Shown here in pieces: positions 5,481-59,349 of a stretch of 64,000 nucleotides of DNA. The stretch spans positions 367,908,001 to 367,972,000 of the forward strand of contig OZ024741.1 in the NCBI GenBank assembly GCA_964016885.1, in the 5' to 3' direction. Within the stretch, counting starts at the first letter, position 1; the number at the start of each line of letters is the position of its first letter. Origin of the DNA: Eledone cirrhosa. Lineage: Eukaryota. The notes under the pieces were generated by a model, which saw nothing but the letters and a program-made list of their open reading frames with translations, was not told where the DNA came from and made no database searches. The position numbers and the translations under genes are program-made.

Positions 5481-5520
5481 ACACAGAAAACATTAAAATC
5501 ATAAAGTTTTTCTTAATTAA

Positions 5521-6139: not shown

Positions 6140-6241
<102 letters not shown>

Positions 6242-7437
6242 TAGGTAGTTTCTGACCAATCATTCTCTCATGCACTTATATATATAACACTTTTAAAGTT
6301 TTATATGCTTAACATAGGCAGCGAATTGGCTGAGTTATTAAGGCATCAGATTAAATACCTTATTTGTTCCTGCTCACTGTGCTCTGAGATCAAATCCTGC
6401 CAAGATCAATTTTGCCTTTCATCCATTTGGGGTTGATGAATAAAGTACCAATTCAGGTGCAGTAGATAGTTAAAACTGTGGGAGTTTGTTGAGTGAAATT
6501 TCATTATTCTGCTTGCTTCACTAAGATATTACTGACCAGCAGATTATTACAGTAGTAGTTAGATCAAATATTAATGCTTTTGACACCTAATTGCCTGAAA
6601 CCAGCCCTGATTCTACAATACATAACTATTTGTTTTAAAGTGTTTATATTTATCTAAAAACATTACATCATAATTTTGTTATGTTATGTTTGAGAAAATT
6701 AGTTACATTATACTAAGTCTTTTCAAATTTTTTGTTAATTGGAAACATAAGCAGTGTTTTTCATGAAAAATATGGTAATATAATAAAGGTTAAAAACCTT
6801 TTAGGGAAGATATTGAAGTAAAATTTCATGTAATATAAAAGATTAAGTGCTAGAATATAAGGTCTGTATCCTCGTATGTTTATTTCAGGTCCAATTTTCA
6901 AAATATTGAAACTAACAATGTCTTGTATAACAATACAAAACAAGGTTTGTGATCTAGTGATTAGATTCTTGGGCTCATGATGATATAGTTGTGGGTTAAA
7001 TTCTTGGTTGGTGCATTATATCCTTGAACAAGATGCTTCGTTTTATGTTGCTCCAGTCCACTTAGCTAAAAAGAAAATGAACATCAACGGCAGGCAACAA
7101 CAATGCAGCACAAAGTATTTTGTTAGTTTATGTACTAACTTCAGATACTGCCATTAATGTATATTGAAGAAGGTTTGGCAATTCTTGATAGATTTATTCT
7201 AAATAATTACACTACACGGTAATATAGTTTTCATGAGTCAGTGATTTAACCTTTTTGTTACCATCTTTCTAATAAACGATACTGTCTATGATTTTCAAAC
7301 AATTTTGAAAATAATCAAGAATTTAGAGGGATTTGGTAACAATAATTTCATTATTAAGCTAGAGTTTGAAATATGGCTTAACAAATGTTCTTACATAAAA
7401 TTATGTTGGAAGGTTTTTAAATAAATATAAACAATCA

Positions 7438-8062
7438 CCCTCTCAAAAAAGCCTGCACAGTGCACTCTACATGTGAGTGGGATTCCACTGAAACAAGTGG
7501 AGAAATTCAAGTATCTTCAGGCCGTTTTCACGAGTGATGGAAAGCAGGAGGCTAAATTAAATTCAAGAATTGCAGGAGCTGATGCAGTAACGTGCTAGCT
7601 TTGGGTCATCAGAAGAAGGGAAGTAGGTGTAAAAGCCAAACTCGCTATCTTCAATTTGGAATTCATGCCAACCCTTACCTATGGTCACGAATCTTGGGTA
7701 ATGACCGAAAGAATATAATTGCAAATACAAGCGGCCAAAATGGGTTTCCTCTGATGTGTTTTTGGAGTAATGTTACTCAGTAGTGCGTAGCTGAGAGATC
7801 AGAGAGTAGACCCATTGCTTCTCCAAATTGAGAGATCACAGCTCCAATATAACGGACATGTGGTTAGAATATCACTGGACAGATTTTATGGGCAAAACCA
7901 ACTAGCAGGGGATCCAGGGGTTGACTCTGAGCAAGATGGTTGGTCTCACTTAGGGATTCAGCCAGATCAATTGAATACATTTGCTTCTGACAGGATCCAC
8001 TGGAAGGTGTGCTCAAGACAGCCCCCACAACCCTCACAAGAATAAGTGAGTGAAGAAGAACG
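7438..8062 (+). mobile_element. Second RTE lineage (Rex3/Expander-like) 3' fragment with (GAA)n tail, nested in a piggyBac-type MITE (7246-8155)
   Basis: Reads LKQVEKFKYL..VFTSDGKQE, PTLTYGHESWVMTE and IERSQLQYNGHVVRI. Related 3' ends occur at ~57150-57360 and ~63010-63309. The flanks resemble the two halves of the MITE seen intact at ~23865-24105. Confidence 0.75.
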
Positions 8063-8290
8063 ATGAAGGAGAGTAAGTGAAGAAGAGTCTTACACATATT
8101 GCTTTGTATTATAGAACCAGGAGTTGTTTTAAATGGTTTTATATCAAAAGGGTTGAGGCACTTCTAAAAAAATTACATTCAGTAATGTGGTTTTATTGTT
8201 GATGCTATTGTTTTTTTTTTTGGGGGGGGGGGGGGGGGTATTCTTGAAGATGTTGATGTTTGAAATAAAACATCTTTTCTAATCATTTAA

Positions 8291-8467
<177 letters not shown>

Positions 8468-9927
8468 TAGCTATGTGATTTGGGATGAGTTTAGTAGAAA
8501 AGCCGAATGGTCTTGATGTAATCATCTCTTCTGCAACAAGAGATATTGTATGGGAAAAGGTTGCAGATGGAAAGTATTATGGATGTGTTTGTGAAAACCA
8601 TCAATTTGATACAAGCAAGAGCTCTCAATCATTGACAGTTCCTTTCTTTTCTATCCATCATGGATAGTGAATAAGGAGAGCCTCTATCATTCTGAAGTGA
8701 GGTGGCTCAGTGTTTTCCTTGTTTTAATAATATAATAATTCGGTGATTGGACGAGAACCAGTGTTTTCAGCGTGATATGGCCGTAAATAATATTTATAAT
8801 ACTTTATAATCGCAATTTACCCATGAAATACAAATAAAATGGACAAAATGAAATTTATCAAAAGTGAAACGGAATTAAGAAAATTTGCAATGGAAAATTT
8901 ACCCCCCTACATTTTGTACTAATTCATGTATCCCACTTTCTATCATATACGTATTTATTTTGATTAAAAATAAATAGCAGTCAATCAGCTGCATTGCAGA
9001 TTAACATTATAACTGGAGGAAATCATACCCTTCCCCTGATCATCTCATTTTTGGCTCATTGTGCCCCATGACATAATGGCTCTTTTGTGACCCCTGATTT
9101 AGTTGTTTAGTGCAAGGTCAACTCTAATCAAGCAACTAGACCTATAATCAAATGTATTTTAGCCATGATTGTAGGGTACAGTTTATGGGATTTACAAGTA
9201 CAGTTCCTGCATTAAATTATTTTACATTTTATCATCATCACCACCATAACGACCATCATCATAATCAGCGTCATTATCATCATCTTATGTGTGCTTTCTA
9301 TGCTGAGAAGATGGAGAGGTCATCCTAGTTTGAGTCACTTCTTATTTAGAGTTACTGCCCTTTTAGATAGGTCTCAGGACATCATCTTGTACATTCCATT
9401 TTTGACAGATTAAATGTATACAACTCAGTCAACTGTAGCAGGATTTGAACTCAGGGAGAAAACTAAATACTACAATCCATTTACTCTAATATTCCATTGG
9501 TTCCTAGTTATACAATGGCTTATTATTTTTTCATGATAAAATGCACCCAGTACATTCCTTTAAGTAGTAATGCTGGTGTCACAATAAAAATCACCTGGTA
9601 TACTCTGTAAAGTGGTAGTGTTAGTGCTATGATAAAATACTTCCAGTACTATCTCTAAAGTGGGAATACTAGTGCAATAGGAAGGGCATCCAGCCATAGG
9701 ATTCATGCCAAAAATGGAACATACAAACAAGTTTCCAAATCCATCTGAGACAATGGCTTTGGTTAAGTATTGACTTGGTCTGTAATAACCTGTTCAACCC
9801 ATGCCAGCATGGAAAAGCAGGTGTAAAATGATGATGGTGAGGATGAATAATCCTCTCTACTAATTCTTTGTGTTATTTCATTTTGTTCAGTAATTCATTA
9901 ATCTTTTACTTTTATTTTTGTCTGCAG

Positions 9928-10137
9928 GTTATTATGGCTACAAATCGTATAGAGACCCTAGACCCTGCATTAATTCGCCCTGGTAGAATAGACAGAAAGA
10001 TTGAATTCCCACTGCCTGATGAGAAGACCAAGAAACGTATCTTTACAATTCACACAGACCGTATGACCCTGGCTAATGATGTCAAAATTGACGACTATGT
10101 GATGGCCAAAGATGACCTTTCAGGAGCAGATATCAAA
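9928..10137 (+). CDS. PSMC1: PSMC1 exon (sensor 1, arginine finger)
   Basis: TCTGCAG|...|GTAGGT, 70 codons: [31 protein letters not shown]...DDLSGADIK. Confidence 0.98.
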
Positions 10138-11391
10138 GTAGGTATCTTCTAGAATGTTTTAGGTTTAAGGCCTATTGTCATCATCAGGGGAGAAATTGGA
10201 TAATGTAGTTGAAAAAAAAGACATGACTAGAACATATTTGATCATAGGTGTACTAGATAGTGGCTAAACAAAAACTAAATAGCATTGCAATAACAAAATA
10301 TTGTGTATTTTTTAAAGTATTCTATTACAACTTTTAATTTTCAGTAAGTGATGTGGTGAGAGATTGGAAACTGCATGGCGTAGCGGTGTCCATTTTAGCC
10401 TGAAGTGGATGCGATAACCTCTTTAGCATTGGTGTCTCAATGGAGTACCAGGGGTTGACAATGTAGGGTAGTGAAGACTCTTATTGAGGATTTGTCAACT
10501 TCTCTGGTATTGGTGTCATGCACCTATTACACTCTGTAAAGTGATTAGTATTAGGAAGGGCATCCAGCCATAGAAACCATATCAAATATAGAATGTATGA
10601 GCAAGACTTGGTAGCTTAACTAGTCTCAAACCAAAACAACCCGTTCAACTCGTGCCTGTGTGGAAAACATGTAAAATGATGAGTGTGATGGCACATCATT
10701 TTTTGTTCTTATTTTGTAATGCTTACAACTAAATACCTAGATATTAAGTAGACTAGACTTACTCTGATAAGTAAACTATTGTTACTGTGTCCAGCATATT
10801 TCTCCAATAGGAATTTAGTTTAGTCATGAGATAATTATTGCTGATTACAACCTGACTGCTGAGCTTCTTAAGCCCAACTGTCTATAGCAATTAATTGCTG
10901 AGGTCCACCATTCACAAAACTATAAATTGGTGGTGTAGTGTTGTGTTGACTACTTTAGAACATCCTGTCTTGTTCAACCTCACTAAGGATTGTTAGGGTT
11001 GTATAAATTATAGATCTAACTAAAGGGTGTCTTTTGTTTGATGCTATATTCAGTACAGGCATAAGATTGGTTGTTGTGGGTTAATAACAGGAATGTTGCA
11101 GTGCTATTTTTGTGAGATAAGAACTGCAATGCTTCTATACACCTGCATACATACATACACACACACTTACACAAACATACATATATAAGATACCATGAGT
11201 AATATGTACATTGTAAAGTTATACATTTTTATATGTACAATGTTTTTCTAAATGCCATTAGTGTTCATCCATTATTCTCATAACCTGTACAGTTTGAATG
11301 GCACTATAAATAAATAGTAAGATACATAAACTTTAAAGAGTAATGGAATGTAATAAAGGCATCAAGCTTGACAAATGAGATGCTCATCTTG

Positions 11392-12229
11392 TCATCATCA
11401 TCATCATCATCATCGTTTTACGTCCGCTTTTCTCTGCTTGCAAGGGTGGGACGGGTCCTATTCAGCACAGCATCTCTCCACTTGTCACGGTCCTTCATCA
11501 TCTCCTCCGTGAGTTTCAGCGATCTGAGGTCTGCTCTCATCACCTCCGCCCATGTTTTTCGGAGTCTTCCTCTACTGCGTCTTCCTTCTACTGGGATTTC
11601 TTGGCACTTCTTTACCCAGCGGTCATCCTCCATGCGCATCACATGTCCATACCATCTCAGCCTTCTCTCCTGCACACCACAACTTATCCCTCTTATACCC
11701 AGTTTCTTTCTCAATTCATCCATGCTTGGTCATTCACGCACATTGACATTGCACATCCAACGGAGCATGCTTGCTTCATTTCTCTCCAGATGTCGCATAT
11801 CCTCTGCAGTTGCTGCCCATGTTTCACTACCATGCAGCATCGCGCATCTCACACAGGCATCATATAACTGTCCTTTCATATGCAAGGAGAAACTCTTCTT
11901 TGTCAACAAAGGAAGCAGCTCCCTAAACTTCTTCCAACCTGTCCTTATTCTAGATACTATGGCCTCGGAACAGCCCCTCCCATGCTAATCTGATCACCTA
12001 GATACCGGAAGCTATCAACCACTTCTATAGAACCCACCTGCATTGGAAAAATGTGTCTATCACTGTGATTACTACTACCAACTTTCCCTGTACATCTACT
12101 GCATACATAGTTTTCCATACCTGTTAGTTTGCCTGCTATCCCACTACATCTTTTGTGTACCCAACATCTGCATTGCGTACATTTTATGGAATTTATGCCA
12201 GTTCCTTTTCTACATATTGAACATGGCCA
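11392..12229 (-). mobile_element. RTE LINE (PHD-containing family), 5'-truncated, short-3'-end subfamily
   Basis: WPCSICRKG...CTQCRCWVHKRC...CSRC...FRYLGD through LRWYGHVMRM...RPTLASREKRT*, followed directly by (GAT)n. Confidence 0.93.
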
Positions 12230-13967
12230 TATATAATGATGATGATCATCATCACCATTTAACGTCCATTTTTCCATGTTAGCATGGGTTAGATGAGTTG
12301 TCCTGTTGTGAGATTTTGGCTTGGTTTCTACAGCTGGATACTCTTCCTAACTCCAATCACATTTACAGTGTGGGCTAGGTGCTACACGACCACCTTACAG
12401 TGTGGGTTGGATGCTTTTTGTCGTGACACCTACACAACCACTTTACAGTGTGGACTGGAGATTTTGGTGGGAAAGGTGTGTGGGGATTGGGGAGTTGGGT
12501 GTATCGGCATGTGTGAGGGGGGAGGGGGGTTAGAACGTGAGAGGTGTATGGAAGGGGGAAATGGAGGTGAAGGTAGTGCATACTAGATGTTGGGGCAGGT
12601 TTTCTATGGCTGAAAGCCCTTCCAGATAACAATTCATACCTTATTTTAAGTATGATAGATACTACTTGCGTTTGTCAAATGTCTTCTCTGCGGGACATAT
12701 TGTTTATGGAGGACATAAACTACTGCCACCACAGGCTTTATAAGCAATGTCTATGTGACATTTTTGATGACTGGCATATATACATACACAAGATGGGCTT
12801 CATACAAAAGACATTTGTTCTGTGCCATGAGAATCTGAAAGCACTTGGTTATAAAGTGCACTGCTTAACCATCGAGCCATGTCTGTATATGCACATATGT
12901 GTGTGTGTATTTATATATATTTATATATATATATATATATATACAGACTCTATCTTTGTATCTCCCGCCATTGGCTCCTTTTGCCACTGCTACTACTGTT
13001 ATTTCCACCTAATGTTGTGGCTGCTCCCTTTCGAACAGCAAACAGCCTTTCTTTCGCCAATTGTGGCTTGAGGCGGACGTCCGCCATTGCTCTCTTGTTC
13101 TGCTTTTCTAGCATTTGGAAACTGAGATTTGATTCCTGTTGCGCAGTCAATAATTCTAGACATAGTCCTTCCCTCATGCGAGAAACTATGTTGCGGTATC
13201 ATATTGTAAATTATTGATGGGAGGCTGATGATTCAGATAATGCTAACTTCCTTGTTATTGTTAATCTATTCTATCCATCTCTCCGTCTTTCTCCATCATT
13301 CTAGTCCCCATTTTTCTCCTCTCCTCCCATTCTCACTCTCTCTATAACCCTTTCTTTTCTCACCTCTCTCTCACACTCTCTGTTCAATTTGTGGTTATAT
13401 CTTAACCCCCCAAAAATGCTTACTATGCAAATAGTATCCAGCTGCTAACAGCTACCTTTCGCGCTGAGAATAGTCAAATTGCGAATATTCATATACACTC
13501 ATCACTTCAAACCTTTCTAATTTTATATATATGAGAAAAAGTCTGTGGTGCTGAGACCAGGGAGACCACTAATTATGGGAGTACTCAATGCATGGAGAGA
13601 TGCAGAGTAGGTATAGAGATATGTAAAATCGGGATTTTACATATATATAGTGTCAAGGGTTTCTGTGGAATAGATAAAGGAAAAGGAGTGCTGTGTTCAT
13701 GTGTTCAATACAGAAAGTATATTTATTTATAATAATATATAGAGAGATATATAATAATATATAGAGAGATATATAATGATATATAGAGAGATATATAATG
13801 ATATATAGAGAGATATATATCATCAAAATGGGTGTTAAACAAAAAAAATAATATATATAAATTTAACCTATGTATCTTCATATGTCTGCGTATAAAATGT
13901 GTAGGAGGCATAGTGAATGTGCAATATTTAGTAGCTGTTCATGATGTTATTGTTGTCTTTACTACAG

Positions 13968-14102
13968 GCTATTTGTACTGAGGCTGGTTTATTGGCATTG
14001 AGAGAAAGAAGAAGGAAAGTCACCAATGAAGATTTCAAGAAAGCCAAAGAAAATGTGTTGTATCGTAAGAATGAAGGAGCCCCAGAAGGACTTTATCTCT
14101 AA
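13968..14102 (+). CDS. PSMC1: PSMC1 last coding exon with C-terminal HbYX motif
   Basis: CTACAG| [44 protein letters not shown] with TAA at 14100-14102. The PEGLYL tail is diagnostic of Rpt2. Confidence 0.97.
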
Positions 14103-19210: not shown

Positions 19211-20265
19211 GTGGTGGCCATGACTGGACCCTGAGACCATTGGTAGCACATACAAGTGTGTGAAACTTTGCTTACACTAAAAAAGCTCTCTTCCAACAGA
19301 TTGAGCAATGTTTTCCTTGACCTTTCATTTACTGATTTCTACCATGTGTGTATAGATAGAGAGTGATGATGATGGAGTGGAAGATAAATATAGGTTTGGA
19401 TTTCTAAATGCACATACATGTGTATATGCTCTCTCTCTCTCTTTTTCTCTCCATATATATGTGTAGGCGGCAAATTGGTAGAGTCGTTAGAACGTCAGAA
19501 TACTTAATGGTATTCATTCCAGTTCTCTGAGGTCAACTTTGCGTTTCATCTTTTCAAGGTCAATAAAAAAAAAGTACCAGTCTAATACTTGAATCGATTC
19601 TTCCTCTAATTCTCTTTCTCATTTTCTTCTCTCTCTCTCTCTATTTTTCTCTGGAAGAAATCTGCTGGAGAGGGATGGGCTCTGCCAGGCTTACAATACC
19701 CAAGAAACACAGTATGTCAATAGTGACGCCCCTACGACTCTATCAGGAATTAATTACGGGGTGAGGGGAGGGGGGGGGGGCATACATATATATATATATA
19801 TGTGTGTGTGTGTATGTATCATTGTGTATATATAAATCTATACCTACATTTATCTGTATGTCTGTCCACCTGTCTATGCTATTTCTGGCCTCTCACTGGA
19901 GGAAACATGAGTATTAAGTGTAATATCTAAAGCCAACTCTCTCATAAGACTGCCACACACATAAATACATTTAGAAACATACATAAACATATGCATATTC
20001 ACACACACAAACATGCACACATACACTTATACACATATACAATCTCAGATGAAATATTAATGTTAACTTTTGTCATGTCCATCAGAGTGGGAAGAGGTGA
20101 AAAGTTATAAATGGATGGATGATGATGATGATAACAATGATGTTTCTATTGTTGCTGCTGTTGTTGTTTCCCATTATTCCAAGAGCTAACACCTGACAGC
20201 AAACATTAAACATCTGTCCATTGAAATTAGAGATGTTTTCAGCAATGCAAAATAAAAATAAAAAT

Positions 20266-21935
20266 TACCACCACCACCACCATCACTGCTACTATCACCA
20301 TCAGTAGTACCACCACCATCAGCACAATAACCACCACAAATACTACCACTATCACCACCACAACTACCACCACAACTACCATCACCACAAATACTACCAC
20401 TATCACCACCACAACTACCATCACAACAACAACCATCACCACAAATACTACCACTATCACCACCACAACCACCATTACCACTACCACCACAATCACCATC
20501 ACCACCACAACCCCCATTACCACTACCATCACCACCACAACCACCATCACCACAACAACCACCATCACCACAATCACCATCACCACTACCATCACCACCA
20601 CAACCACTATCACCACAACTACTACCACCATTACCACTACCATCACCACCACAACCACTATCACCACAACTACTACCACCATCACCACAACAACCACCAT
20701 CACCACAATCACCATCACCACCATCACCACTACCATCACCACCACAACCACTATCACCACAAATACTACCACCATCACCACAACAACCACCATCACCACT
20801 ACCATCACCGCCACAACCACTATCACCACAACTACTACCACCATCACCACAACAACCACAATCACCATCACCACCATCACCACTACCATCACCACCACAA
20901 CCACTATCACCACAAATACTACCACCATCACCACAACAACAACCACCATCACCACAATCACCATCACCACAACAACCACAATCACCATCACCACCACAAC
21001 CACAATCACCATCACCACCACAACCACCATCACCACTACCATCACCACCACAACCACTATCACCACAAATACTACCACCATCACCACAACAACCATCACC
21101 ACCACAATCACCACTACCATCACCACCACAACCACCATCACCACAACTACTACAACCATCACAACAACCACCATCACCACAACAACCATCACCACCACAA
21201 TCACCATCACCACCACAACCACCATCACCACTACCATCACCACCACAACCACCATCACCACAACTACTACAACCATCACAACAACCACAATCACCATCAC
21301 CACCACAACCACAATCACCATCACCACCACAACCACCATCACCACTACCATCACCACCACAACCACCATCACCACAACTACTACCACCATCACCACAACA
21401 ACCATCACCACCACAATCACCATCACCACAAACACTATCACCACCATCATCACCACAATAACCACCACCATCATCACCACAATAACCACTACCACAATCA
21501 CCATCACAACAACCACCACCATCACCACAACAACCACCTCCGCCACAATCACCACCACCATCACTACAATCACCACCAACACCATCACCACAACAACCAC
21601 CACCACAATCACCATCAGCACAACAATCACCATCATCACAACAACCACCACTACAATCACCATCACCACAACAACCACAACCACCACCACAACAATCACC
21701 ACCACAACAACCACCATCACAATTACAATCACCACAACAACCACCGCCACTATCACCACAACAACCTCTATCACTATTAGTAGTACCACCACTACCATCA
21801 TCCACAGCAGCATTGCAATCACCACCACCACCATCACCACTATTATTGCCAATCTCACCAACAGTACCACCACATTCACCATCACCCACTATCATTACCA
21901 ATAGTAGCATTACAACCACCACCACCATCATCATT
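20266..21935. repeat. Degenerate (CCA/TCA/CAA/CTA)n triplet array with higher-order repeat units
   Basis: About 1.67 kb of in-register triplets. It produces the 582-aa Gly/Cys/Asp and 548-aa Val/Met ORFs on the minus strand. Confidence 0.95.
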
Positions 21936-24443
21936 ATGGATTACCCTTTACTCCCACAGCTGCCACCCCTCGTCCCAAACTCATTGTCTGTCTGTCTTTC
22001 TCTCTCTCTCTCTCATTTGTACTATTGTTCTCTTCACCACCTCACCCTAATTCTTCTATTCACCCCTTGTTCAAGTTACCTTGAATATATGGAAATAGTA
22101 AGTACTCTTTTATCTTGCATGATACAAAGCAGCCTCACTAATGTTGAGGCCATGATAAAATGCACCCAATAAACTCTAAAAAGTGGTTGCTATTAAGGGC
22201 AACTAGCCATAGAAACCATACCAAAAATGTAGCACATAAGCATAATGTGGTCCTTTGGTCAATTTAGAAGGGCAATAGCACAGAATAAGAAGTAACACAG
22301 ACTGTGACAATTAATCCAACCCATGCCATAAAGGGATTATAATGAGGAGGTGAGTCATGTTAGCAACACTAATACCACATTCTTTAAAAAGCCATTATGT
22401 ATTTGTTTCATTTATAAATGTAGCTCATCTGGTTATTTCAACGTTATAACCAAGTTTAACCTTTCACAGAATATATTATTGTATGTTGATGTTTAAATAT
22501 AACCAGTGTGGGAATGTTGTTGTCTTTCAGGAATAAATTTTCAACTGTAAACTTTTTTTCTTTTTTCTTTTACTGTTCGTTTTTTGTACTGTCTTAAAGC
22601 CACACCAATCTGGAATAACCTTGCAAGTATGATTCACCCAATTATGTGGCAAAGTCTTGTCAAATCTTCTCCAGATTTCCAACTGACTTAATATATATAT
22701 CTGATCATATAGTGTTTACTTAACTTCAGACAATAATTGTGGTGGCAAAAGTGCATTTGAGAATGTTGTATGTAACTCAGCTGAAATAGTGATAAGTGGT
22801 TTGATAATGTATGTCTTTTTATATTTTTTTTAATGTTGTCTTGCCAAGGTCTACTTAACCTTTTATTTCCACATCCACCCAAGTTAGTAAAATAAGTATT
22901 TGGTAGCATACTTAGATAAGATTTCAAAACCAAGAGACCATACAGGGAATGTGAAATTCAAGATTATTAGGTATTGCAGCATAGGAAACAGAATTAATTC
23001 TCTTTATATAATAAAAAGTAAATAAATTTCTTTTTGCTTTCAAAACTTTGCAGCTGTCCTGTCAAATTTATTCATTTAAGTTTTATGGTAATAAAGAAGT
23101 GTGTACCTAGTTTGAATAGCTAATTTCTACTACAAATCTTTTAGCAATAATCTATGTTATAGCACACATTTTCATTTTTCTTAAAGATTGTAGTGATTTA
23201 AGGGAGATTTCGATGCTATTTTTAGCAGGTTGAATGCCTGCCTAAAAGTTCCATTATTGACATACACAGATGAACTGCCACTACATATCAAAAAAAGAAA
23301 TATATGCACCTAAATATAAATTTCAGGTTTTCTCAAATATAACAGTGATAAATCTAAAATTACACATATAACAGTGATAAATCTAAAATTACACCTAGTT
23401 GAATATGTCTGTAGCAGTAATTTGATACTCTCCTCAATAGAGTTTCTTTTACACTATCAAGTGGTCACCACGAAACTGACCTTTATAGCCTCATAGATAA
23501 ATTCAATTGTGAATAGGCTTTCAGTGCCACCATATCAGAGATTTTGACATATCAACAGGCCATCTGCTTGTTTTTGTATCCTGGAGACAAAAGAATGAAA
23601 TACTGATAAATGCCAAGCAATGGCACAGTTCAGTACTGACCAGTTAAGATATAGTGGTCAACTGTCTCACACACTCCTTTGGGTCTTTCTCTCTCTCAGC
23701 CAGGCCAGTGAAATTCATCCCATCAACAGCTCAACCTAGCACCAAACTCACTATAATTGGTAACAAGAGTTATTATATGTCACAATTTAATATGTTGTTA
23801 GGTTGGTGGCCTCTTGTTAAAAAATAACATCAAAATATCCCCCAAAACTGAAAACATATGCCATTAACCATTCCATTACCACATTTCTAATAAAATACAG
23901 ACTAATTTTCAATTAATTTTGAAAATAATCAAGAATTTGAGGAAATTTTGTAATATAACTAACTTTCTCATTAGGAACATAACATAAAGGTTCTGACATA
24001 AAATTATGATGTAAGGTTTTTAGATAAATATGAAAAACTTTAAAATAAGCAATTTTGTATTATAGAACCTGGAGCAGTTTCAGATAGTTAGGTGTCAAAA
24101 GTATTGAATATTTTGAGGCTCTAAGCTCTAGCTTGTTTATCTTATACCAAAATCTGGCACTGACTTCATCAATATCACTATTTTGAGGGATTCTGCAAAT
24201 GTTAGGGACACTGCACCACTTCTGACTAACATATGAATATTCATATTCATGAGAGTCATGGTTATCTGTAGCAATAGGTATCAGATGACTAGAGTTGTGA
24301 TTAGTGCTTTCTAGCCAGTTTATAGCCATTTGTCTTGGATGGTAGAATTAATCCATTACCCTCCCCCACCCACCAACTATTTTACCATTTTTTAAAGTGG
24401 GCTGTGTGCATTTATTGTGACATCAGCACTTCCACATTCCAGT

Positions 24444-25474: not shown

Positions 25475-27045
25475 ACTCCATGAGAGCACCTATATGCTAT
25501 GACCTAGTTCTCATAACTGAATCCGTAGAAGTGTTAGAAGCAAAATTTCAAGTTTGGAAGAAAAGAGACATAAAAGTAAATTTTACAAAGATGAACATTT
25601 TAATATGTAGAAAAGAAGACAGGAACGTGATACCATCAGGAATGTGGTCTTGTTCAATATGTCAGAAAGGAGTGGACAGGAATTCCATAAGGTGTACACA
25701 ATGTAAATTATGGACACACAAGAGATGTAGTGGGATTGCAGGTAGGCTAATGGAAAAGACAGACTTTATATGTGGCAGATGCACAGGAGAAGTGAGCACT
25801 AAGAACTCATGTGAAATAGATTCCTTCAGCTGCCAGTGGGCTCTATAGAAGCTGTTGACAGCTTTCCCTACGTAGGCGATCAAATTAATAGGGATTATGT
25901 GCTGAAAGTGTGATAGCTAGGATAAGAACAGACAGGAAGAATTTAGAGATCTATTACTTTTGCTACTAATAACAAAATACTTTTCTCTCAGAATGAAGGG
26001 TAGACTGTATGATGCCTGTGTACAAACTGCAATTTTACATGGCAGTGGAACATGGGCCTTGACTGCAGAAGTCCTGCAGAGGCTAGAAAGAAATAAGTTG
26101 AGTATGCTCTGATGGATGTGTAGTGTTAGTGTGCATGAGTGACATAGGATAAGTAAACTGAGGAAAAAACCTGACATAATAGAAACTGGATGTAGTGTGC
26201 AAGAGTGAAGACTGCATTGATATAGACATGTGATGCACATGGAAGATAGCAGCTGCATAAAGAAATGCAGAGAAGGCCTAGTGGCTGGGACCCTTGGAAG
26301 AGGTAGACACAGGAAGACATGGGATGAAGTTGTAAAAACTGACCGTAAAAAACTAAACCTCATGACAGAAATGACTAAAGACTGTGAGGGCTGGGGCTAT
26401 GCAGTCCCGAGGAAGGCCTGACCTGCAGCATACAATGTGACCAAACCAACACCCATGTCCCTGCCTCTACTAGCACTCCCCAACAGTCATCCTCAACATC
26501 ACTGCTTCAACCCCACCATGCATTCCTAGCAGTTGCCCTCCCTCTCCTGTGAAACAGTTGGTGATTGGAAAGGCATTCAGCTGGGGGGCGGGGGGCTAAA
26601 CAAACAAAGGGTTGGAAGGACCCTTCAGTCACGTCAAAACGTGTCAGCCTCCCTAGTGTTTGATCGTTTACGCGATTAACACTCGGTACATGTTGTAAAG
26701 TGGTTGGTAAAAGGAAAGGCATTCAGCTGTAGAAAGCTTGCCAGACAGCCTCTCTAGTGTTGGTGATCTACATGATAAACGCCCACAGTACACGCTGTAA
26801 AGTGGTTGGTGATAGGCAGGGTATCTAGACGTAGAAATCTTGCCAAACAAAAGAATCCTCAGTGGTGTCAAAGACATGACAACCTCTAATGTGCACTCAG
26901 TGGAACGTCGACCGTACATAAAGCGAAACACAGATTCCTGATCTGCCTGGGAGATCAGTGTCTCCGCTTCAGTACAGACTTGGTCTATGTAGACCCGTCC
27001 AACCATTGCTAGCAAGGAAAGCAGACGTTAAAACGACGATGATGA
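25475..27045 (+). mobile_element. Degenerate RTE LINE (PHD-containing family), RT C-terminus plus 3'UTR
   Basis: SGMWSCSICQKG...CTQCKLWTHKRC...CGRC and GRGRHRKTWDEVVKTD. 3'UTR modules and the terminal hairpin/(GAT)n lie at ~26995-27045. Confidence 0.85.
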
Positions 27046-32212: not shown

Positions 32213-32848
32213 CACATACATATATATATACATACATATATATATACATACATATATACATATATAAGGGATAACAAAATATCGTTATAGGTAATCCAGT
32301 TAGAGGTTGTGAATACTCCGTATTGTGGATAGTTTTAGCGTACGTCGTTGTTTGACTCAACAATCAGTGAAACAATTGTTAATACTGTAAATAAAACCTT
32401 TTTTTGTACTGTTGACCATGTTATTCTTCATTCTTTCAATATATATATATATCGACTGACCTGCCTGCCTCTATCTTTACTCGGCCCTTGAAAAAATTGA
32501 TTCCACTTCATTTACTCTCATCTCGGGAACAATTTTGAATAGCGCCAGTTTGTAATTTAAGTTCGAGAATTTTATATTCTTCGAATGTAAAGAACCTTCT
32601 GACGAGAATCTTTCTTTGCAACGAAGGCCGTATGGACTCCGTTTATTTTTGAGATTCGAAACCGATTCGGTTTTAAAATTTATTTTTAAACTTTTTCCTT
32701 ATTTGCTAAACCTTGTTATATATATATATATATTTCCTTCTTCCTTCTTTCGAAACTCTAAACTCCCGCTTCCTCGACCCCCACCCCCTCTACTTCGCGA
32801 GGCCATGGCGGTCAACCGCCCAATACACACACACACATCATACGGCCA

Positions 32849-32985
<137 letters not shown>

Positions 32986-33275
32986 GATAGAAATTCACTT
33001 CGCCAAATTTCATTGCTTTGCTGTCTACCCCACGATATTCATGTAACGTAATGTACATATTTTTCTTCATCTCTACCTCCACACTCCATATTTCGTATCA
33101 AGTCCAAATAGCCAATCTATTGCTAAAACAATCTACATTTTTTGTATTCATTAATTGTTAGATACGAAAGTTTTTGTCGTATTGGAACAGAACAAATTTT
33201 GTATTTTGTTAATCGCTTGTTAAATGCAAGGACCCCATTCAATCATTACCTTCTATCTAGCTACCCAACACCCCT

Positions 33276-36200
33276 CCCCCACGCACCACCATTGCTATTA
33301 CGTGGACCAATCATAAGCCAGAGCCCCCACGCATCACCAGTATTATTATTACGCGGACCAATCAGAAGCCAGAGGCCTATACTATCGCTTGCCTGGTTGC
33401 CTTTCGATATATGATGGATGGATGGACTGCGGAATCCTGGAGAGTGGAGGAGAGAGAGAAAAATCTGGACGCTCAGCGACAATGCCAAAGATAAAGACAA
33501 ATTCACCTCTTGGACGAGAATGCGAGCACTCCTCATTGTTTCGACCGCGGACGGCTAACATAACCCCACCGCCCCCAACCCCCAAACGCAATCCAAAACT
33601 TCAGAGTTGGTACCATAAATGTAGGCACCCTAAAGGGTCGCGCTAACGAGGTTGTAGAAATGCTTGAACGTAAGGAGGTCGATGTTTGTTGTATTCAAGA
33701 GACCAGGTGGAGGGGTGGGTCTGCTAGATTCATTGAGGGTAAAAAACGATGTTATAAGCTTTTCTGGGTGGGAAACGACGATGGGCTGGGTGGAGTAGGA
33801 ATCATGGTAGCAGAAAAGTGGGCAGATAAGATAATAGACGTAAATAGAGTGAACGACAGAATAATTAAAATACGACTTGTCCTCAATAGAACTACGGTGA
33901 CAGTAATATCTGCGTACGCACCCCAATCCGGACTGCCCGGCACTATAAAAGACAGATTCTATGAGACACTGATGCTAACTACCTCCCAAATATCCGACAG
34001 TGACTATATAATTATTGCAGGCGACCTAAATGGTCACGTTGGACAACATTGTGACGGCTACGACGAAATCCATGGAGGCTATGGGTTTGGTACTAGAAAT
34101 GAGGAAGGCTCCAGAATCCTGGAATTCTGTGATGCAAATAACCTAACTATCTGTAACACTAACTTCAAAAAACGTGACAATCACCTGATCACCTATAGAT
34201 CCGGGGAACACACAAGCCAGGTAGATTATATCCTTACCAGAAGACGTGACAGAGTGTCTGTTGTAAACACTAAATCCCTCCCCCATGAAGAATGCACCTC
34301 CCAACATAGACTGATAATTAGCGACCTCATAGTCAGGACGAGACGTACTCGACAGCAGAAGAGGACTACCCTCAGGAGAAAAATATGGAAGCTAAAGGAC
34401 CCCACAGCCAGGAATAAATTTCAAAGCATATTACTTGATGCTTTCGACAGTAAAGAAGAACATTTAGAGTCGGACAATATAGAGGGAGAGTGGGAATTTC
34501 TGAAAGCAAACCTGCTGTTGGCGACAGACGAAGTCTGTGGCTGGAGCAGGCCTGTAGGCAGGAGGAGAGTAACATGGTGGTGGAACAGTAAGGTGGAGGG
34601 GTCAATTAAGGCCAAAAAGCAGGCTTGGAAAGTATGGCGGGATGGGGGAAGTAGAGAAGACTATCAAGTGGCCAGGAGGGAAGCTAGGAGACAAGTGTAC
34701 TTAGCAAGAAGGGAAGCTGAGGAAAGAAAGTTCAAGCATGTTCTACAACGCGATGACCAAAAACGTGAGGTGTTCAGGATTGCTAGGCAATGCGTCAAGG
34801 AAAACCGTGATATTGTCGGGGAGAAGTGTGTACTAAACGACGATGGCACACTTGCCATCACCGACGCTGATAAGAAGGTAGCTTGGAAGTGTCACTATGA
34901 AAGGCTACTAAATGAGGAGAATAAATGGGAGAAAGACAGTCTCCCCCATATCGACCCAATAGAGGGACCAGCAGTGTTAGTCGAGGGGAGTATAATAAGT
35001 AAGGCAATCAAGGATATGAAGACGGGTAAGGCGGCTGGGCCTTCGGAAATAGTTGCTGAGATGCTGAAGGCATCTGGCACGGTGGGACACACCATGGTCA
35101 CCCGCATAGTTAACCAAGTCGTACAGAATGGGGTTGTTCCGAAGGACTGGCATAGCAGCATCATCGTTAACTGTTATAAGGGTAAAGGAGACGCCCTAGA
35201 TAGGAGTAACTATAGAGGCATTAAATTAATCGACCAGGTCATGAAGGTCACGGAAAAAGTAATAGCACAACTAATCAGAGAAAGAATTGACCTAGATGAA
35301 ATGCAGTTCGGGTTTGTGTCAGGCAAAAGTACCACAGACGCTCTTTTCATTGTACGACAACTACAGGAGAAGTACCTAGCTAAAGGTAAACCCCTCTACT
35401 TAGCTTTTGTCGACTTGGAGAAAGCCTTCGACAGAGTCCCCCGCTCAATTATCTGGTGGGCTCTTAGAAAACTAGGCGTTGACGAATAGCTTGTGAGAGC
35501 TATACAAGCCATGTATAAAGAAACAGTCAGCAAGGTTAGAATTAACAACGAATATAGTGAAGAGTTTAGCGTAAAAGTTGGCGTCCATCAGGGCTCTGTT
35601 CTCAGCCCCTACTATTTATTATTGCCCTTCAGGCTATAACAGAGGAGTTCAAGACCGGCTGCCCATGGGAACTCCTATACGCAGACGACCTGACACTCAT
35701 AGCGGAATCAATGGCCGAGCTAGAGAAGAAATTCCAAACATGGAAGCACGGCCTAGAATCAAAAGGCCTTAAAATTAACCTGGCTAAGACTAAAGTTCTA
35801 GTTTGTAGGAAAGAAAATAAGGCGGCGGTCCCTTCTGGGAAATGGTCGTGCTCGGTGTGTAGGAAAGGCGTAGGTAGAAACTCCATTTTATGTCCTAAAT
35901 GCAAAGTATGGGTGCATAAAAGATGTAGTGGGATCACAGGTAAGCTAACTAAGAACATAGATTTTACATGTGGCCGGTGCTCTGGTGCAATAAGTAGCAG
36001 CAAGTGCCCACAAAATACTAGCTCTTTCAATTGCGCAGAGGGTTCTATAGAAATAGTGGACAGCTTCCATTGCCTGGGTGACAAAATCAGCAGTGGGGGG
36101 AGGGTGCTCTGAAAGTACAGTAGCTAGAGTCAGAACTGGATGGAAAAAGTTCAGAGAGCTCATACCACTATTAGCCGCTAGAGGGTTCTCCCTAAAAATG

Positions 36201-37023
36201 AAAGGCAGGTTATACGATGCCTGCATACGAACAGCAATGCTGCATGGCAGTGAGACCTGGGCATTGTGTGCAGAGGATATACGCAGACTAGAGAGGAACG
36301 AAGCTTGCATGCTCCGCTGGATGTGCAATAGTAATATACGTGAACGGCTAAGCATAAACGAACTAAGGAAAAAATTAGAAATAAGAGGAATCAGATGTTG
36401 TTTACTTGAGAGAAGACTATGTTGGTATGGTCACGTGATGCGCATGAAAGTCGATAGCTGTATAACAAAGTGCAGGGCAATAAAGATAGATGGTAGCCAC
36501 AGAGTAGGCAGACCCAGAAAAACCTGGGACGACATGATAAATTCCGACCTCACACGCTTACACCTCTCCAAGACAATGTCACTGGACCTTTGGCGGTACT
36601 CAGTAATAGAGAAGACCCGCCTTACCTAAATACAAAGTAAAACCCTACTACAGTCAGTAGGCATCTCTAACAAAATACACCCCTGTCCCCCCACCCACCC
36701 CCACCCCATCCACACCACCCCTTTCAATGTAAAGTTATGTTGGTGCCACAACATCCAGGCCGAAACAAATGAGATCGTGTAGGTGTCACGACAAAAAAAC
36801 ACACAGTCCACGCTGTAATCTGGCCGTGTAGGTAACACGGTAAAAACCTCCCAGCCCCACACTGTAAATGTGGTTGGTGTTAGGAAGGGCATCCAGCTGT
36901 AGAAAACCTGCCAGACAGTCCTATGCGAGCAATGACAACCACTCTTGCCTCAAGTGGGAAAACTCCCGTCCAAACCCATGCAAGCGTGGAACATGGACGT
37001 TAAACGATGATGATGATGATGAT
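33276..37023 (+). mobile_element. Near full-length RTE-clade LINE (5' boundary uncertain, possibly ~32986)
   Basis: Single EN-RT ORF, a ~390-nt 3'UTR, a terminal stem-loop and a (GAT)n tail. Confidence 0.95.
33600..36629 (+). pseudogene. RTE ORF: APE endonuclease + reverse transcriptase with inserted PHD finger; one stop and two frameshifts
   Basis: GTINVGTL, IQETRW, GDLNGHVG, QVDYIL, FVDLEKAFD, HQGSVLSP, YADD (35678-35689), PHD at 35849-35980, RLCWYGHVMRM and GRPRKTW. Lesions are TAG at 35487-89, -1 C at 35606-09 and +1 G at 36095-100. Confidence 0.93.
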
Positions 37024-42289: not shown

Positions 42290-43449
42290 ATCATCATCAT
42301 CGTTTTAACGTCCATCTTCCACGCTAGCATGGGTTAGACAGTTTTGTTCCATTTGATGCAGGATTGGTCGGGAGACCGTGTCTCGCTTGTATGGATGTGT
42401 CTCTGACAGGTTTTCTATAGCTAGATGCCCTTCCTAACACCAGCCACATTTACAGTGTGGACTGGGTGCTTTTTGTTGTGTCACCTACACAGTGGATGGG
42501 GTAGGGTGTGTGGGGTGATGTGTATATTGGGTTAACAGGTGCCTACTGACTGTAGGTTTGTATGCAAGGGAAGGCGGGGTCTTCTGTACAACTGCATGGC
42601 ACCAAAGATCTCGATCCAGTGACATTGTCTTAAAGAGGTGTAAGTGAGCAAGGTCAGTTTTTATCACCTCGTCCCAGGTTTTTCTTGGTCTACCCACTCC
42701 ATAGCTTCCATCAATTTTCATTGCTCTGCACTTTTTTATACAGCTGTCGTCCTTTATACATATCACATTGCCATACCACCGCAATCTCCTCTCTACAACA
42801 CAACATTTGATACCTCTTATGCTTAATCTCTCTCTCTCAATTTGTTTATGCTTCACCATTTGTGCACATTACTATTACAAATCCATCGGAGCATGCAAGC
42901 TTCATTTCTTTCTAATCTACGCAAGTCTTCAGCACACAATGCCCAGGTCTCACTACCATGTAATATCGCCATTTGTATACAAGCATCATACAATCTGCCT
43001 TTCACTTTTAGAGAAAAAACCCTTGTGGCCAACAGCGGTATTAGCTCTCTGAAATTTTTACATCCCGTTCTAACTCTGGCTACTACACTTTCAGAGCACC
43101 ATCCTCCACTGCTGATTTTGTCACCCAGTTAACGGAAAATGTCTACTATTTCTATAGAACCATCTGGGCAGTAGAAGGAGATAGCATCCAAGTGGGTCTT
43201 TGCTACTTACTGCACCTGAGCATCGGCCACATATAAAATCTACATTCTTAGATAGCTTACCTGTGATCCCACTACATCTTTTATGTACCCATAGTTTGCA
43301 TTTGGGGCATAGCATGGAATTTCTACCTCCTCCTTTCTTACACGCCTGTGCCCTATTCTCTTTTCTACATACTAGAACTTTAGTCTTAGACAAGTTAACT
43401 CTAAGGCCTTTTGATTCTAGACCATGCTTCCATGTTTGGAACCTCTTCT
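42290..43449 (-). mobile_element. RTE LINE (PHD-containing family), 5'-truncated
   Basis: KTKVLVCRKEN...LCPKCKLWVHKRC...CGRC...RLRWYGNV...[10 protein letters not shown]. Both ends abut (TA)n. Confidence 0.92.
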
Positions 43450-43934
43450 TATATATATATAATCCCCATCATCATTTGACATCCATTTTTCCATGCTTGC
43501 ATGGGTTAGATGGGTTGTCATGTTATGAAGCAAGTCAGATCAGGAGACCACCTCTAGCTCATATGGATCTGTATTTTGGTTTGGTTTCTGTGGCTAGATG
43601 TCCTTCTTAAAAACAACCACATTACAGTGTAGACTGTGTGCTTTTTATTGGGCATCAAAACAACCATCTAACAAGTTGGACTGGGTGCTTTTTATCATAT
43701 CACCAGCACAACATATATTCTCAACCTTAGAAACATATGAGTAAATAAATGAATTAATTAGTACATTATAATACTATCATAGAAAGTAAATAAGCCATTC
43801 CTAAATTGTTTGTTCCTAATCCATTGTAGACCCACCTACTCTGTCTGCTTCTCTCTTTCTCACTTCCATTGATACCCCTCTCCCTCTCTTTATTTCCCTG
43901 GTAAACTACAGCTCCACCTCTTTCTCCTATACAT

Positions 43935-52739: not shown

Positions 52740-54233
52740 TAGGTCTTCCGTGGGGAAGAATGCATCGCCCAACACAGGTTAGTTATTAGCGACATAAAAA
52801 TAAACACAAGACAGAACAAGATATGCGGGGAAAATATGGAGATGGAGGGTTTGGAAACTAAAGGACCTTTCAGTTAAATATAGGTTTAGCAAGGCTCTAC
52901 AGGATGCAGTAGATGAGAGGGGTGATGAGCTAGGTACATATAACATAGAGGACAACTGGAAATTCCTACATAACAACTTATTGTAAACTACTGATGAGAC
53001 TTGTGGCTGGAGTAAAGTGCCAGCCAGACAGGGTGACCTGGTGGTCGAACAGCACAGTGGATAGTTCATCAAGATTTGGTTCTTAGTCCATTGCTGTGCA
53101 TCATAATGCTCCAGGCTATAACAGGGGAGTTTAAAACTGGCTGTCCGTAGGAACTTCTCTATGCAGTTGATTTGGTCCTTATAGCTGAATCCATAAAAGA
53201 ACTAGAAAATAAGTTCCAACTTTGGAAACAGAATTTGGAATCAAAAAGTCTCAGAGTAAACTTAGCAAAAACTAGTAAGTAGGAAAGAAGTGCTAGTGCT
53301 AATAAGTAGTTAAGAAGATAAGACCAAGATCCCTTCAAGGAAGTGGCCCTGCTCCATATGTAGAAAAGGAGTAGGCATAAACTCCATCTGGTGTACACAA
53401 TATAAATCTTGGGTACACAAGAGATGTAATGGGATAATGGGTAGATTAACACACAATATAAATCTTGGATACACAAGAGATGTAATGGGATAATGGGTAG
53501 ATTAACAGGAAAGGAAGACTTTGTATGTAGATGCACAGGAGTAATCAAAGAGAAGAAGAGCAGTGATATAAACCCTTTCCAGTCAGAGGAAGGGCACATA
53601 GAAGTAGTTGATAACTTCTGCTATATAGGTGACTTAATTAGCAGCAGAGGAGGGTGCTCTGAGAGCATAATAGCTAGAATAAGGATAGGATGGAAGCAGT
53701 TTAGGGAGCTACTCCCACTGTTAACAACAAAAGGTTTCTCCCTATGTACAAAAGGATGACTGTATGATGCTTGTGTATGAAGTGCAATGCTGCATGGTAG
53801 TGAAACATGGAGTGACTGCAGAAGACATGCATAGACTAGAGAGAAATGAAGCAGACATGTTTTAATGGATGTGTAGTGTAAATGTAAGAGAAAGGCAGAG
53901 CTTGGATGAATTGAGGAAAAAAGAAAGCTGAGGTTAAGAGAATCTGAGGTGGTGTGCAGGAGAGATGACTGCGTTAGTACAGATATGTGAAGCACATAGA
54001 TGATGATCGCTGGGTGAAAAAGTGCCAGGAAATGCCAGTGGAAGGAAGCTGCAGTAGAGGTAGGCCAAGAAAGACCTGGGTAGAAGCAGTGAGAGCGGAC
54101 CTCAAATTGCAGAGACTCACAAAGGAGATGACAAAGAAACGCAGTAAATAGAGAGATGCTGTGCTGAGAAGGACCTGTCCAACCCATGCAAGTGTGGAAA
54201 AACAGATGTAAAAATTATGATGATCATGATGAT
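52740..54233 (+). mobile_element. Rearranged RTE copy (internal deletion; 56-bp tandem duplication at 53395-53506)
   Basis: VWKLKD...CGWSK is joined directly to the VLSPLL region, followed by a PHD remnant, GRPRKTWVE and (GAT)n. Confidence 0.85.
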
Positions 54234-55185: not shown

Positions 55186-56840
55186 TTGAGATTGATGAAT
55201 ATAGGGTCCAAGAGGCGATTAAGGAAATGAAAAATGGTAAGGCTGCTGGACCGTCGGCGATAGTTGCTGAGATGCTGAAGGCATCAGGGGACGTAGGCAC
55301 TAAAGTGGTTGCACGCATCATCAATCAGGCTATATATGGCGGTGTCATACCCAAAGACTGGTGCAGCAGTATTCTTATAAATTGCTACAAAGGTAAAGGG
55401 GATGCTCTGGAGAGGAGCAATTATAGGGGTATAAAACTGATGGATCAGGTTATGAAAGTGGCAGAAAGGATATTAACACAACTAATTAGAGAAAGGGTCA
55501 AACTAGATGAGATGCAGTTTGGTTTTGTGCCTGGGAAAAGTATAACAGATGCCCTCTTCTTGGTGACACAATTACAAGAGAGGTTCTTAGAGAAGAATAA
55601 GCCACTATACTTAGCCTTTGTTGACCTAGAGAAGGCCTTTGATAGGGTACCCCGATCTGTCATCTGGTGGTCCCTAGGAAACTAGGTGTTGAGGAATGGC
55701 TTGTGAGGATAGTGCAAACTTTGTACAGAGGTGCTGTCAGTAAAGTGAGGGTAGGAATGGAGTTTAGTGAGGAATTCCAGATACAAGTAGGAGTACATCA
55801 AGGTTCGGTCCTCAGCTCACTCTTGTTCATTATAGTCCTCCAAGCCATAACAGAGGAGTTTAAGACTGGCTGTCCATGGAAACTTCTCTATGCTGACGAT
55901 CTGGTTCTTATAGCAGAATCAGTAGAGGAGCTAGAGAATAAATTCTGGTTATGGAAACAACAATTGGAAGAAAGAGGACTGACAGTGAACCTAGCTAAGA
56001 CAAAAGTGTTGATGAGTAGAAAAAAGGACAAAACTCTGATTCCGTCAGGGAAATGGCCATGTTTGATATGCAGAAAAGGAACTGGCATAAATTCTATAAA
56101 ATACACACAATTCAGATCCTGGGTACACAAGAGATGTAGTGGGATAGCAGGCAAACTAACAGGTAGGGAGAAATACATATGCAGTAGATGTACAGGGAAC
56201 TTAGACAGTAGAAGTCGCATTGATAGACACATTTTTCAAATGCAGGCGGGTGCTATAGAAGTGGTGGTTAGCTTCCGGTACCTAGGAGATCAGATTAGCA
56301 TGGGAGGGGGTGTTCCGAGGCCATAGTATCTAGAATAAGGACGGGTTGGAAGAAGTTTAGGGAGCTGCTTCCTCTGCTGACAAAAGGCGGGTTATATGAT
56401 GCCTGTGTGAGGAGCGTGATGTTGTATGGTAGTGAGACATGGACAGCAACTGCAGAGGATATGCGACGGCTGGAGAGAAATGAGGCAAGCATGCTCCATT
56501 GGATGTGCAATGTCAGTGTGCGTGAACGACCCAGCATGGATGTGTTGAGAGAGATAGAATGTAGTCTGCAAGAGAGGAGACTGCGGTGATATGGACATGT
56601 GATGCGCATGGAGGATGACTGATGGGTAAAGAAGTACCAGGAAATGCCATTTGAAGACATGGTAGAGGTAGACCACGAAAAACATGGGCGGAGGTGGTGA
56701 GAACAGACCTCAGATCGCTGAAGCTCACGGTGGAGATGACGAAGGACCGTGACAAGTGGAGAGATACTGTGCTGAATAAGACCCGTCCCACCCTTGCAAC
56801 CAAGGAAAAGTGGACGTAAAATGATGATGATGATGATGAT
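55186..56840 (+). mobile_element. 5'-truncated RTE (PHD-containing family) with full RT region
   Basis: MKNGKAAGP...FVDLEKAFD...GVEEWLVR...HQGSVLS...YADD...PHD remnant...FRYLGD, with a (GAT)n tail. Both ends lie in (TA)n. Confidence 0.94.
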
Positions 56841-58542: not shown

Positions 58543-59349
58543 CAAATTCCATTGACACAGGGTGGTGTGTTAGTGAACAAGATCTTGGCTTTACATTGAC
58601 ACAAAGGAGAAGTAAGCAAAACCTACCAACTGTTAAAAGTGATATAGATTTTGCTGATGACATAGTTGAATTTTCTGCCAGGAAAATTGGTCTACACATT
58701 AATGTTACTGAGACAGAGTCCATGTCATTAAACCAAGAAGATGGAAATCTTGTCACACTGGATGGTAGAATACTAAATTGAGTTGATGATTTTCTATAAT
58801 TGGTCAGCTGGATGAGTTCATCAAAAAAGGATATTGACATTAGAATTTCCAAAGTCTGAACTGAGATGAAAAAAATAGAAAGGATATGAAAGTCAGATCT
58901 ACTCAGAAAAATCAAAATATTATACTTCAGAACATCTATTGAGTCAGTTTTGTTGTATGGATCCGGTATATATGGATCCTGACACAAACACTTGAGAAGA
59001 AACTAGATGATGCATACACTAAAATGCTTAGGGTTAAACAAAAGATAAACTTGCATCAACATATTACAAATAAAAGTTTATATGGAAATTGTCCAAGATA
59101 ACAACTACAATTGCTCGAACACATCATTTACAGGACATTGCTGAAGAAGTAAGCAGGAAGTTATACACAAGCTACTATTGTGGAAACCAATTCAAAGGAG
59201 ACACAGTATAGGAAGGCCTGCTCACACATTCATCAATCAATACTCAGATAATACAAACCTCTGTAGGGTGCAGTTGCGAGGAGCAATAGAAAATCATGAA
59301 TTGTGGAGAGACTTTGTCAGGAATGTTCAACTGTGGTCACAATGATGAT
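58543..59349 (+). mobile_element. Third degenerate RTE-like lineage, nested in MITE family 2 sequence
   Basis: DIDFADDI, GLHINVTETESM, KDIDIRISK, IESVLLYGS and KKLDDAYTKMLR, ending ATGATGAT. Confidence 0.75.

Follow-up and report, generated by a model that had tools for sequence, protein, structure and literature searches.

A PHD finger between motifs 6 and 7 of the reverse transcriptase in an RTE-type LINE lineage

We have analyzed a 64-kb stretch of DNA, here called the window, in which positions ~32,950-37,023 are occupied by a nearly full LINE with a 5' UTR, an APE endonuclease, a reverse transcriptase (RT), a thumb and wrist region, a 3' UTR and a (GAT)n tail (Table 1). The element may start near 32,730, based on an upstream motif common to other copies and seen by eye. 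The window copy is dead: it has a stop codon at 35,487-35,489, and its frame is broken near 35,605 and again near 36,095. Elements of this class have one ORF of ~1,080 amino acids in which the APE domain precedes the RT, end in a (GAT)n tail and are frequently 5'-truncated. The element shares with RTE-type LINEs a single ORF with APE and RT, a short-repeat 3' tail and the lack of a C-terminal zinc knuckle; Malik and Eickbush reportedly described the RTE clade in 1998 by its single ORF, APE and RT, and short-repeat tail.

Table 1. Positions of the LINE, its domains and related copies in the window
Feature	Position	Strand	Basis
5' UTR and start of ORF region	32950..33563	+	similarity to other copies begins at 32,946-33,081
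APE-type endonuclease	33612..34265	+	Pfam Exo_endo_phos, E 8.6e-11
RT fingers and palm to motif 6 (YADD 35,678-35,689; GLKINLAKTKV 35,765-35,797)	35202..35797	+	RVT_1 matches, two frames
Variable linker 1	35807..35842	+	position that would be equivalent to R2Bm loop 6a
C4HC3 PHD finger, with the aromatic residue two positions ahead of Cys1	35843..35980	+	motif, Pfam, alignment, predicted fold
Variable linker 2, relaxed selection	35981..36049	+	dN/dS 0.23-0.60; pLDDT 66-80
RT motif 7 (FHCLGD here, FRYLGD in most intact copies)	36065..36082	+	sequence
Thumb and wrist region, without L1-type C-terminal zinc-knuckle domain	36083..36629	+	model superposition on L1 ORF2p
3' UTR with (GAT)n tail (37,006-37,023), then TA/CA microsatellite	36630..37023	+	sequence
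5'-truncated copy of related subfamily, begins at PHD, inside proteasome-ATPase intron	11445..12229	-	24.6 bits, passes PHD cut-off
Old-subfamily copy, PHD intact	25501..26415	+	29.8 bits
Related copy, first Cys pair deleted	42578..43450	-	sequence
Decayed copy, PHD partly duplicated internally, Cys-to-Tyr change	52755..54133	+	sequence
Subfamily B copy, two ligands changed	55206..56792	+	14.3 bits, below PHD cut-off

Elsewhere in the window, exons of a 26S proteasome AAA-ATPase gene, which we take to be subunit 4-like, lie on the plus strand within 2,700-14,100 (~2,762, 6,146, 8,324, 9,890-10,150 and 13,968-14,100), and its introns house three RTE fragments. Positions 20,186-21,940 consist of a 1.7-kb low-complexity tandem repeat with several open frames (Gly/Cys/Asp, minus strand) and a strong GC skew.

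The frame at 35,570-36,112 reads, in order, YADD, GLKINLAKTKV, a C4HC3 motif and FHCLGD. The C4HC3 motif, CSVC-x10-CPKC-x4-H-x2-C-x14-CGRC with a tryptophan two residues ahead of the histidine, is encoded on the plus strand at 35,849-35,980. A preliminary description of this DNA had placed a PHD zinc finger here, between GLKINLAKTKV and an F.YLG-type motif, and its motif and coordinates match the sequence exactly. The assignment as a PHD is likewise upheld: the window motif and its relatives have the C4-H-C3 ligand order and spacing of PHD fingers, and Pfam PHD (PF00628) scored the window finger at 30.1 bits against a cut-off of 24 (E 4.8e-7), with RVT_1 covering residues 6-78 and PHD residues 94-137 of the translated frame. 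A C1 or RING identity was rejected, with C1_1 (18.7 bits) and zf-RING_16 (10.4 bits) both below their cut-offs and the ligand order wrong. The PHD assignment in the window is confirmed, and the finger lies within the RT of a broken RTE-type LINE, between RT motifs 6 and 7.

The same module had been said to recur in five diverged copies within the window. All five exist, but only those at 25.65k and 12.1k pass the PHD cut-off, and those at 43.2k, 53.4k and 56.1k are damaged. The 12.1k copy is truncated at the first PHD residue, so that no upstream RT is visible. Three RTE fragments proposed as internal controls (~3380-3490, ~7440-7515 and ~58700-58800) do lack the PHD and have a short linker before motif 7.

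AlphaFold2 modelling of the full ORF (mean pLDDT 86.9) placed a PHD-like fold within the RT, as had been anticipated, with pLDDT 87-94 for the finger, 66-81 for the flanking linkers and an intact RT on both sides. Residues 325-1083 of the model superposed on L1 ORF2p 248-1063 (Z 26.9, rmsd 4.0, 591 aligned), so that the L1 C-terminal domain is absent. The finger modelled alone had a pLDDT of 78. With this model, Foldseek returned PHD fingers including TAF3 and Pygo2, none with an E under 0.001, while the best match using VIA was Drosophila Pygo (Z 5.5, rmsd 3.7, 53 aligned), with other PHDs within one unit. The fold matches listed for the finger were almost exclusively PHD fingers. A two-zinc, cross-brace PHD fold is thus predicted, with modest fold scores.

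Distribution of the finger was determined by protein searches. Among the query and the best 120 of 200 proteins matched by a finger-containing query, 120 had YADD and 117 had the strict pattern. Such a query favours finger-bearing proteins, and the search was therefore repeated with RT residues 520-800 only. Of the 120 matches then listed, 89 were 57-67% identical to the query, and 85 of these 89 carried the full C4HC3 motif at the same position; the four misses are truncated or decayed. The remaining 31 are catfish gene models with 40-43% RT identity and without the insert. In the listed matches of both searches the first cysteine lies 56-58 residues past YADD, and the span from YADD to motif 7 is about 125-134 residues with the PHD versus 63-68 in PHD-less relatives. 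The element resembles the RTE clade in its one ORF, APE followed by RT, missing C-terminal zinc knuckle, short-repeat tail and 5' truncation, and it differs by a 60-70 residue insert that places the PHD between motifs 6 and 7. Among named relatives without a PHD, the catfish models are the nearest. Named hosts among the matches listed are Hydractinia (a hydrozoan), O. bimaculoides, the catfish Neoarius and contigs under bacterial names, of which one is a symbiont of the clam Lucinoma; the closest named match among those listed is from Octopus bimaculoides, which suggests an octopod host for the window. The bacterial-named contigs carrying the element are probably host DNA. Rather than marking a single family, as first described, the finger belongs to a widespread, old RTE lineage with several subfamilies. 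The pairing of PHD and RT is also visible in databases; the ESM Atlas includes a PHD/RT cluster with 262 members, named automatically.

An RT tree was constructed from 63 rows picked for diversity, with the insert columns removed; it contained no Repbase reference elements, and the RTE label of the neighbours is presumed from motif resemblance. The finger had been suggested for presence/absence mapping on such a tree, and PHD-bearing elements do form one group, comprising 42 rows and one partly deleted copy, albeit with weak support (83/44). Four PHD-less rows (P0599, P0602, P0605 and P0712; 97/89) form its sister group, and the two together received 93/94. A sparser tree gave the PHD-bearing group a value of 100, which overstated its support. 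A single gain of the finger is the simplest reading, and secondary loss in the PHD-less sister group may be an alternative to it. A search for the donor of the finger in the Atlas, excluding RT clusters, identified none and returned only unnamed PHD and PHD_Pygo clusters, and an outgroup search with a catfish query returned near-copies only.

A PHD-bearing element of Neoarius graeffei (P0050) is annotated within a catfish gene model and is nested among its relatives in the tree; horizontal transfer into fish is possible. Motif 7 (alignment A1, column 893) reads F-C-Y-L-G-D in 91% of the PHD-bearing relatives and mostly F-K/R-Y-L-G-S in PHD-less ones, and subfamilies A and B of this genome have Arg instead.

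The PHD-bearing subfamilies number at least 23,000 copies in the 3.0-Gb genome, many with open ORFs. Two 26-base probes inside the finger, one for subfamily A and the other shared by B and D, had 11,832 and 11,665 exact matches, respectively, and a 24-base probe of the PHD-less family Y, which is of similar age, had 73 exact genomic matches. When the genome was searched with the RT-PHD segment, 75,631 candidates emerged, 150 of which were scored and proved 91-100% identical. At least 10 of 20 genomic copies selected for long frames have an uninterrupted ORF of ~1,080 amino acids and all eight ligands. The expected conservation of ligands across subfamilies was found in the four compared: all eight are kept in less decayed copies belonging to the 35.8k, 43.2k-like and 56.1k subfamilies and to one more from outside the window.

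In a 148-row alignment the eight ligands are as invariant as YADD; decayed and redundant rows were left out of it, and 85/89 is the unbiased figure. We calculated dN/dS between subfamilies, as had been proposed for the insert, from majority codons of 3-8 copies per subfamily (43-46 PHD codons). The three subfamily pairs with estimable PHD dS gave 0.06, 0.08 and 0.08 for the finger, 0.11, 0.04 and 0.05 for the RT, and 0.57, 0.23 and 0.45 for linker 2 behind the finger. In pairs with subfamily B, dS was saturated and pN/pS was 0.25-0.35 versus 0.17-0.18. Judged by these codon comparisons, purifying selection acts on the finger as it does on the RT. Five genomic copies have lost the last ligand to a common 24-base deletion. 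A propagating subfamily without this ligand was considered and rejected; the loss is attributed to recurrent decay because the five copies form no clade and the deletion sits between direct repeats.

The site of the insert has a counterpart in R2 elements. According to PMC10499050, loop 6a of R2Bm (residues 672-677, between motifs 6 and 7) contacts the upstream target DNA and is needed for nicking, which is blocked by its deletion; the loop is there termed unique to R2, and vertebrate R2 proteins employ it likewise (PMC11601368). In an intact copy, residue 803 is aligned with R2Bm 666, and the finger accordingly begins a few residues after the 6a position. By this alignment the site of the finger corresponds to loop 6a, and we infer by analogy that the finger could face DNA in an APE-type element as well. 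The two are alike as insertions in the same inter-motif RT segment (R2Bm, R2Tg and R2Pm). However, loop 6a is short and reads bases of a fixed rDNA site, whereas the insert described here is a folded two-zinc domain by prediction, in an APE-type element with no fixed site. R2 also has an N-terminal ZnF/Myb region, a C-terminal restriction-like nuclease and an rDNA target, none of which is found here, where an APE nuclease and dispersed insertions occur instead.

The sequence of the finger aligns with Pygo2. In Pygo1, according to PMC2726290, the K4me2 cavity is formed by W366, Y341, D352, V350 and A356 on an acidic face. Among the 85 relatives with the full motif, the equivalent positions hold W in 83, an aromatic residue or His in 75 (Y341), V/T in 81 (V350) and S/A in 82 (A356), and 77 have I at the position of Pygo I357. 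The Pygo acids are missing, with Asn near D352 in 82/85 and no acid among the six commonest residues at E360. The net charge of the finger is positive in 148/148 aligned rows (+1 to +12, mean +6.2); conserved K/R residues lie just after the His and in the next loop, and a G-x-G-x-N-S-I surface is conserved in the same alignment. The Pygopus PHD (PMC2726290) shares the Y-P-C start and the Val, Ala/Ser-Ile and Trp pocket positions. Pygopus has the D352/E360 acids, longer loops 1 and 2 and an acidic surface, whereas the LINE finger is basic, has shorter loops and lacks the acids. Of the features of a Pygo-type H3K4me reader, the aromatic/hydrophobic pocket is present, and the acidic lip and acidic peptide face are absent. 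Four of the five Pygopus methyl-lysine pocket positions are thus kept, on a basic surface that would suit DNA. A predicted complex between the finger, zinc and the unmodified H3 tail (residues 1-30), computed without the alignment, scored 0.02.

Target choice of LINEs is usually ascribed to the endonuclease, and the RT core is regarded as closed to insertions. The preliminary description had suggested that the finger might steer integration, which the insertion sites do not bear out. (TA)3 occurs within 16 bases of the tail in 20/36 subfamily A copies (40 examined) and 10/16 subfamily B copies (20 examined), against a window background of 4%; the pattern used to locate 3' ends missed most of those in subfamily D (2/33 recovered) and, in a first pass, those in B (0/12). 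The PHD was rejected as the cause of (TA)n targeting on account of the PHD-less family Y, which shows the bias too (20/26, versus 1/25 in the PHD-less family X; 30 examined each). The bias tracks tails ending in GAT, not the finger. The TA of family Y could partly be its own tail, and several Y copies have TA on the 5' side also. Median observed/expected CpG in the 3' flanks is 0.47-0.60 for PHD-bearing and 0.71-0.73 for PHD-less families (p 0.011); the flanks of PHD-bearing copies are not CpG-richer, which argues against promoter targeting, although selection may have purged such insertions.

Because the finger sits where R2 loop 6a grips target DNA, our working proposal, to which we give slightly less than even credence, is that it tethers the enzyme to target chromatin during insertion. 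The finger would face the target DNA, as loop 6a does at the same site, and its basic surface would bind that DNA without much sequence specificity. The Pygopus-like pocket would bind methyl-lysine, most likely in the histone H3 tail of a neighbouring nucleosome. Residence on chromatin would be raised in this way, not the choice of target sequence, and the endonuclease, together with microhomology to the tail, would account for the (TA)n preference. Against such a tether, a basic surface without the Pygo acids should repel the basic H3 tail, the DNA path of R2 may not carry over to RTE elements given that R2 cuts with a C-terminal nuclease, and PHD-less RTEs transpose without a finger.

Alternatively, the finger may serve as a nucleic-acid clamp only, gripping target DNA, as a folded version of R2 6a, or element RNA, with the aromatic pocket being structural or base-stacking. 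We consider this possible, though rather unlikely. The uniformly positive charge, the conserved K/R residues, the site equal to that of R2 6a, the absent Pygo acids and the flanks that are not promoter-like all agree with a clamp, as does the lack in RTE of the C-terminal zinc finger with which L1 unzips DNA (PMC7617806). However, the PHD-less families X and Y also lack the L1 finger, yet amplify, and four pocket positions are conserved, with Trp, V/T and S/A kept nearly as strictly as the zinc ligands. It is improbable that the finger mediates protein contacts, either with a host cofactor or within the same polypeptide, in RNP assembly, nuclear entry or stability. The Pygo finger does bind BCL9, the closest folds include Pygo-BCL9 complexes and the G-x-G-x-N-S-I surface could be an interface, but the loop-2 region that binds BCL9 in Pygo (PMC2726290) is short here, and with its basic charge and its place next to the path of the DNA the finger is better suited to nucleic acid or chromatin. 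It is scarcely credible that the insert is carried along as a passenger or that its Cys-rich sequence arose by chance: broken fingers in window copies and the five deletion copies could be cited for this, but the latter form no clade and reflect recurrent decay between direct repeats, and a finger dN/dS of 0.06-0.08 and retention in 85/89 relatives speak against it.

In the literature searched, which did not extend to Repbase, Dfam or most journals behind a subscription, no description of a PHD inside a LINE RT was found, and every LINE PHD encountered lies N-terminal to the RT; the novelty suspected earlier stands to that extent. We judge it somewhat probable that the architecture is undescribed in print. 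The preliminary statement that PHDs of LINEs are mainly found in ORF1 of CR1/L2 elements, not in the RT, fits Metcalfe and Casane (2014; PMC4120745), who, in the sections available, place CR1/L2 PHDs in ORF1 or upstream of the endonuclease and call ORF2 highly constrained. The CR1/L2 elements of that source are similar in having a PHD in a LINE, with top structural matches often to Pygo (2vpb, 3zpv), and differ in that their PHD lies ahead of the endonuclease or in ORF1 and not inside the RT. The portion of PMC8392823 available mentions a PHD solely for CR1 ORF1. RTE-2_OV of Octopus vulgaris (PMC9115989) is likewise an RTE LINE from an octopus but is given a C2H2 finger, and a PHD is not mentioned in the available passages, section 8 or 8 supplements of that paper. 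Identity with RTE-2_OV was not supported by comparison of loci with the three oligos given there, each of which has at least 4 mismatches to the PHD-bearing family; among the loci compared, the reverse primer best fits a PHD-less family (3 mismatches, L190).

Overall, the PHD is a genuine, selected and widely distributed addition to the RT in an RTE-type lineage; its place is mechanistically suggestive, and its function is inferred. What was first proposed holds for the PHD inside the RT, the conservation of its ligands, purifying selection and the absence of a prior paper among those found, and is so far not supported for the steering of integration. A selected domain of 60-70 residues at the DNA-gripping loop of R2 shows that the site accepts a folded module, which bears on how LINEs cope with nucleosomes and on retrotransposon-based gene insertion tools. 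It is conceivable, though we would not expect it, that this is an undescribed ancient animal LINE lineage with a histone-methyl-lysine reader in the target-DNA-facing loop of its RT. If so, the segment between motifs 6 and 7 would serve non-LTR RTs generally as a socket for targeting modules, and PHD-bearing elements would be the LINE counterpart of chromoviruses, with the polymerase itself reading chromatin. Since the PHD-bearing subfamilies are very abundant, their insertion landscape can be tested against chromatin maps once these exist.

Several further observations concern the copies themselves. DNA nearly identical to window positions 35,560-36,140 is present in public runs under 17 organism codes from 16 studies; in the four such runs examined, pieces were 95-99% alike, deep in one run and shallow in three. 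No RNA run containing this segment was among the public runs listed. This DNA may stem from related species, from horizontal transfer or from trace DNA. The density of PHD-bearing copies is ~9-10 per Mb in the first 10 Mb of C1 versus an average of 3.9. At 7.2-9.6 Mb of C1, an interval chosen after the data were seen, the plus strand holds 32/35 subfamily A and 25/33 B/D probe matches, while the strands are balanced genome-wide; fork direction, gene orientation or local duplication may account for this regional bias. The 5' UTR of full-length copies (window 32,730-33,000; L023-L029) has a microsatellite of its own, (CT)n or (CA)n plus (TA)n, its upstream parts vary among subfamily variants, and in L036 a tail joins directly at the 5' UTR point. 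Tail-to-tail pairs, in which the (GAT)n tail is closely followed by the opposite-strand tail of a related PHD-bearing element, were seen at L024, L032, L040, L058 and L063, and tandem duplications of ~100 bases inside the 3' UTR at L006, L013, L019 and L020.
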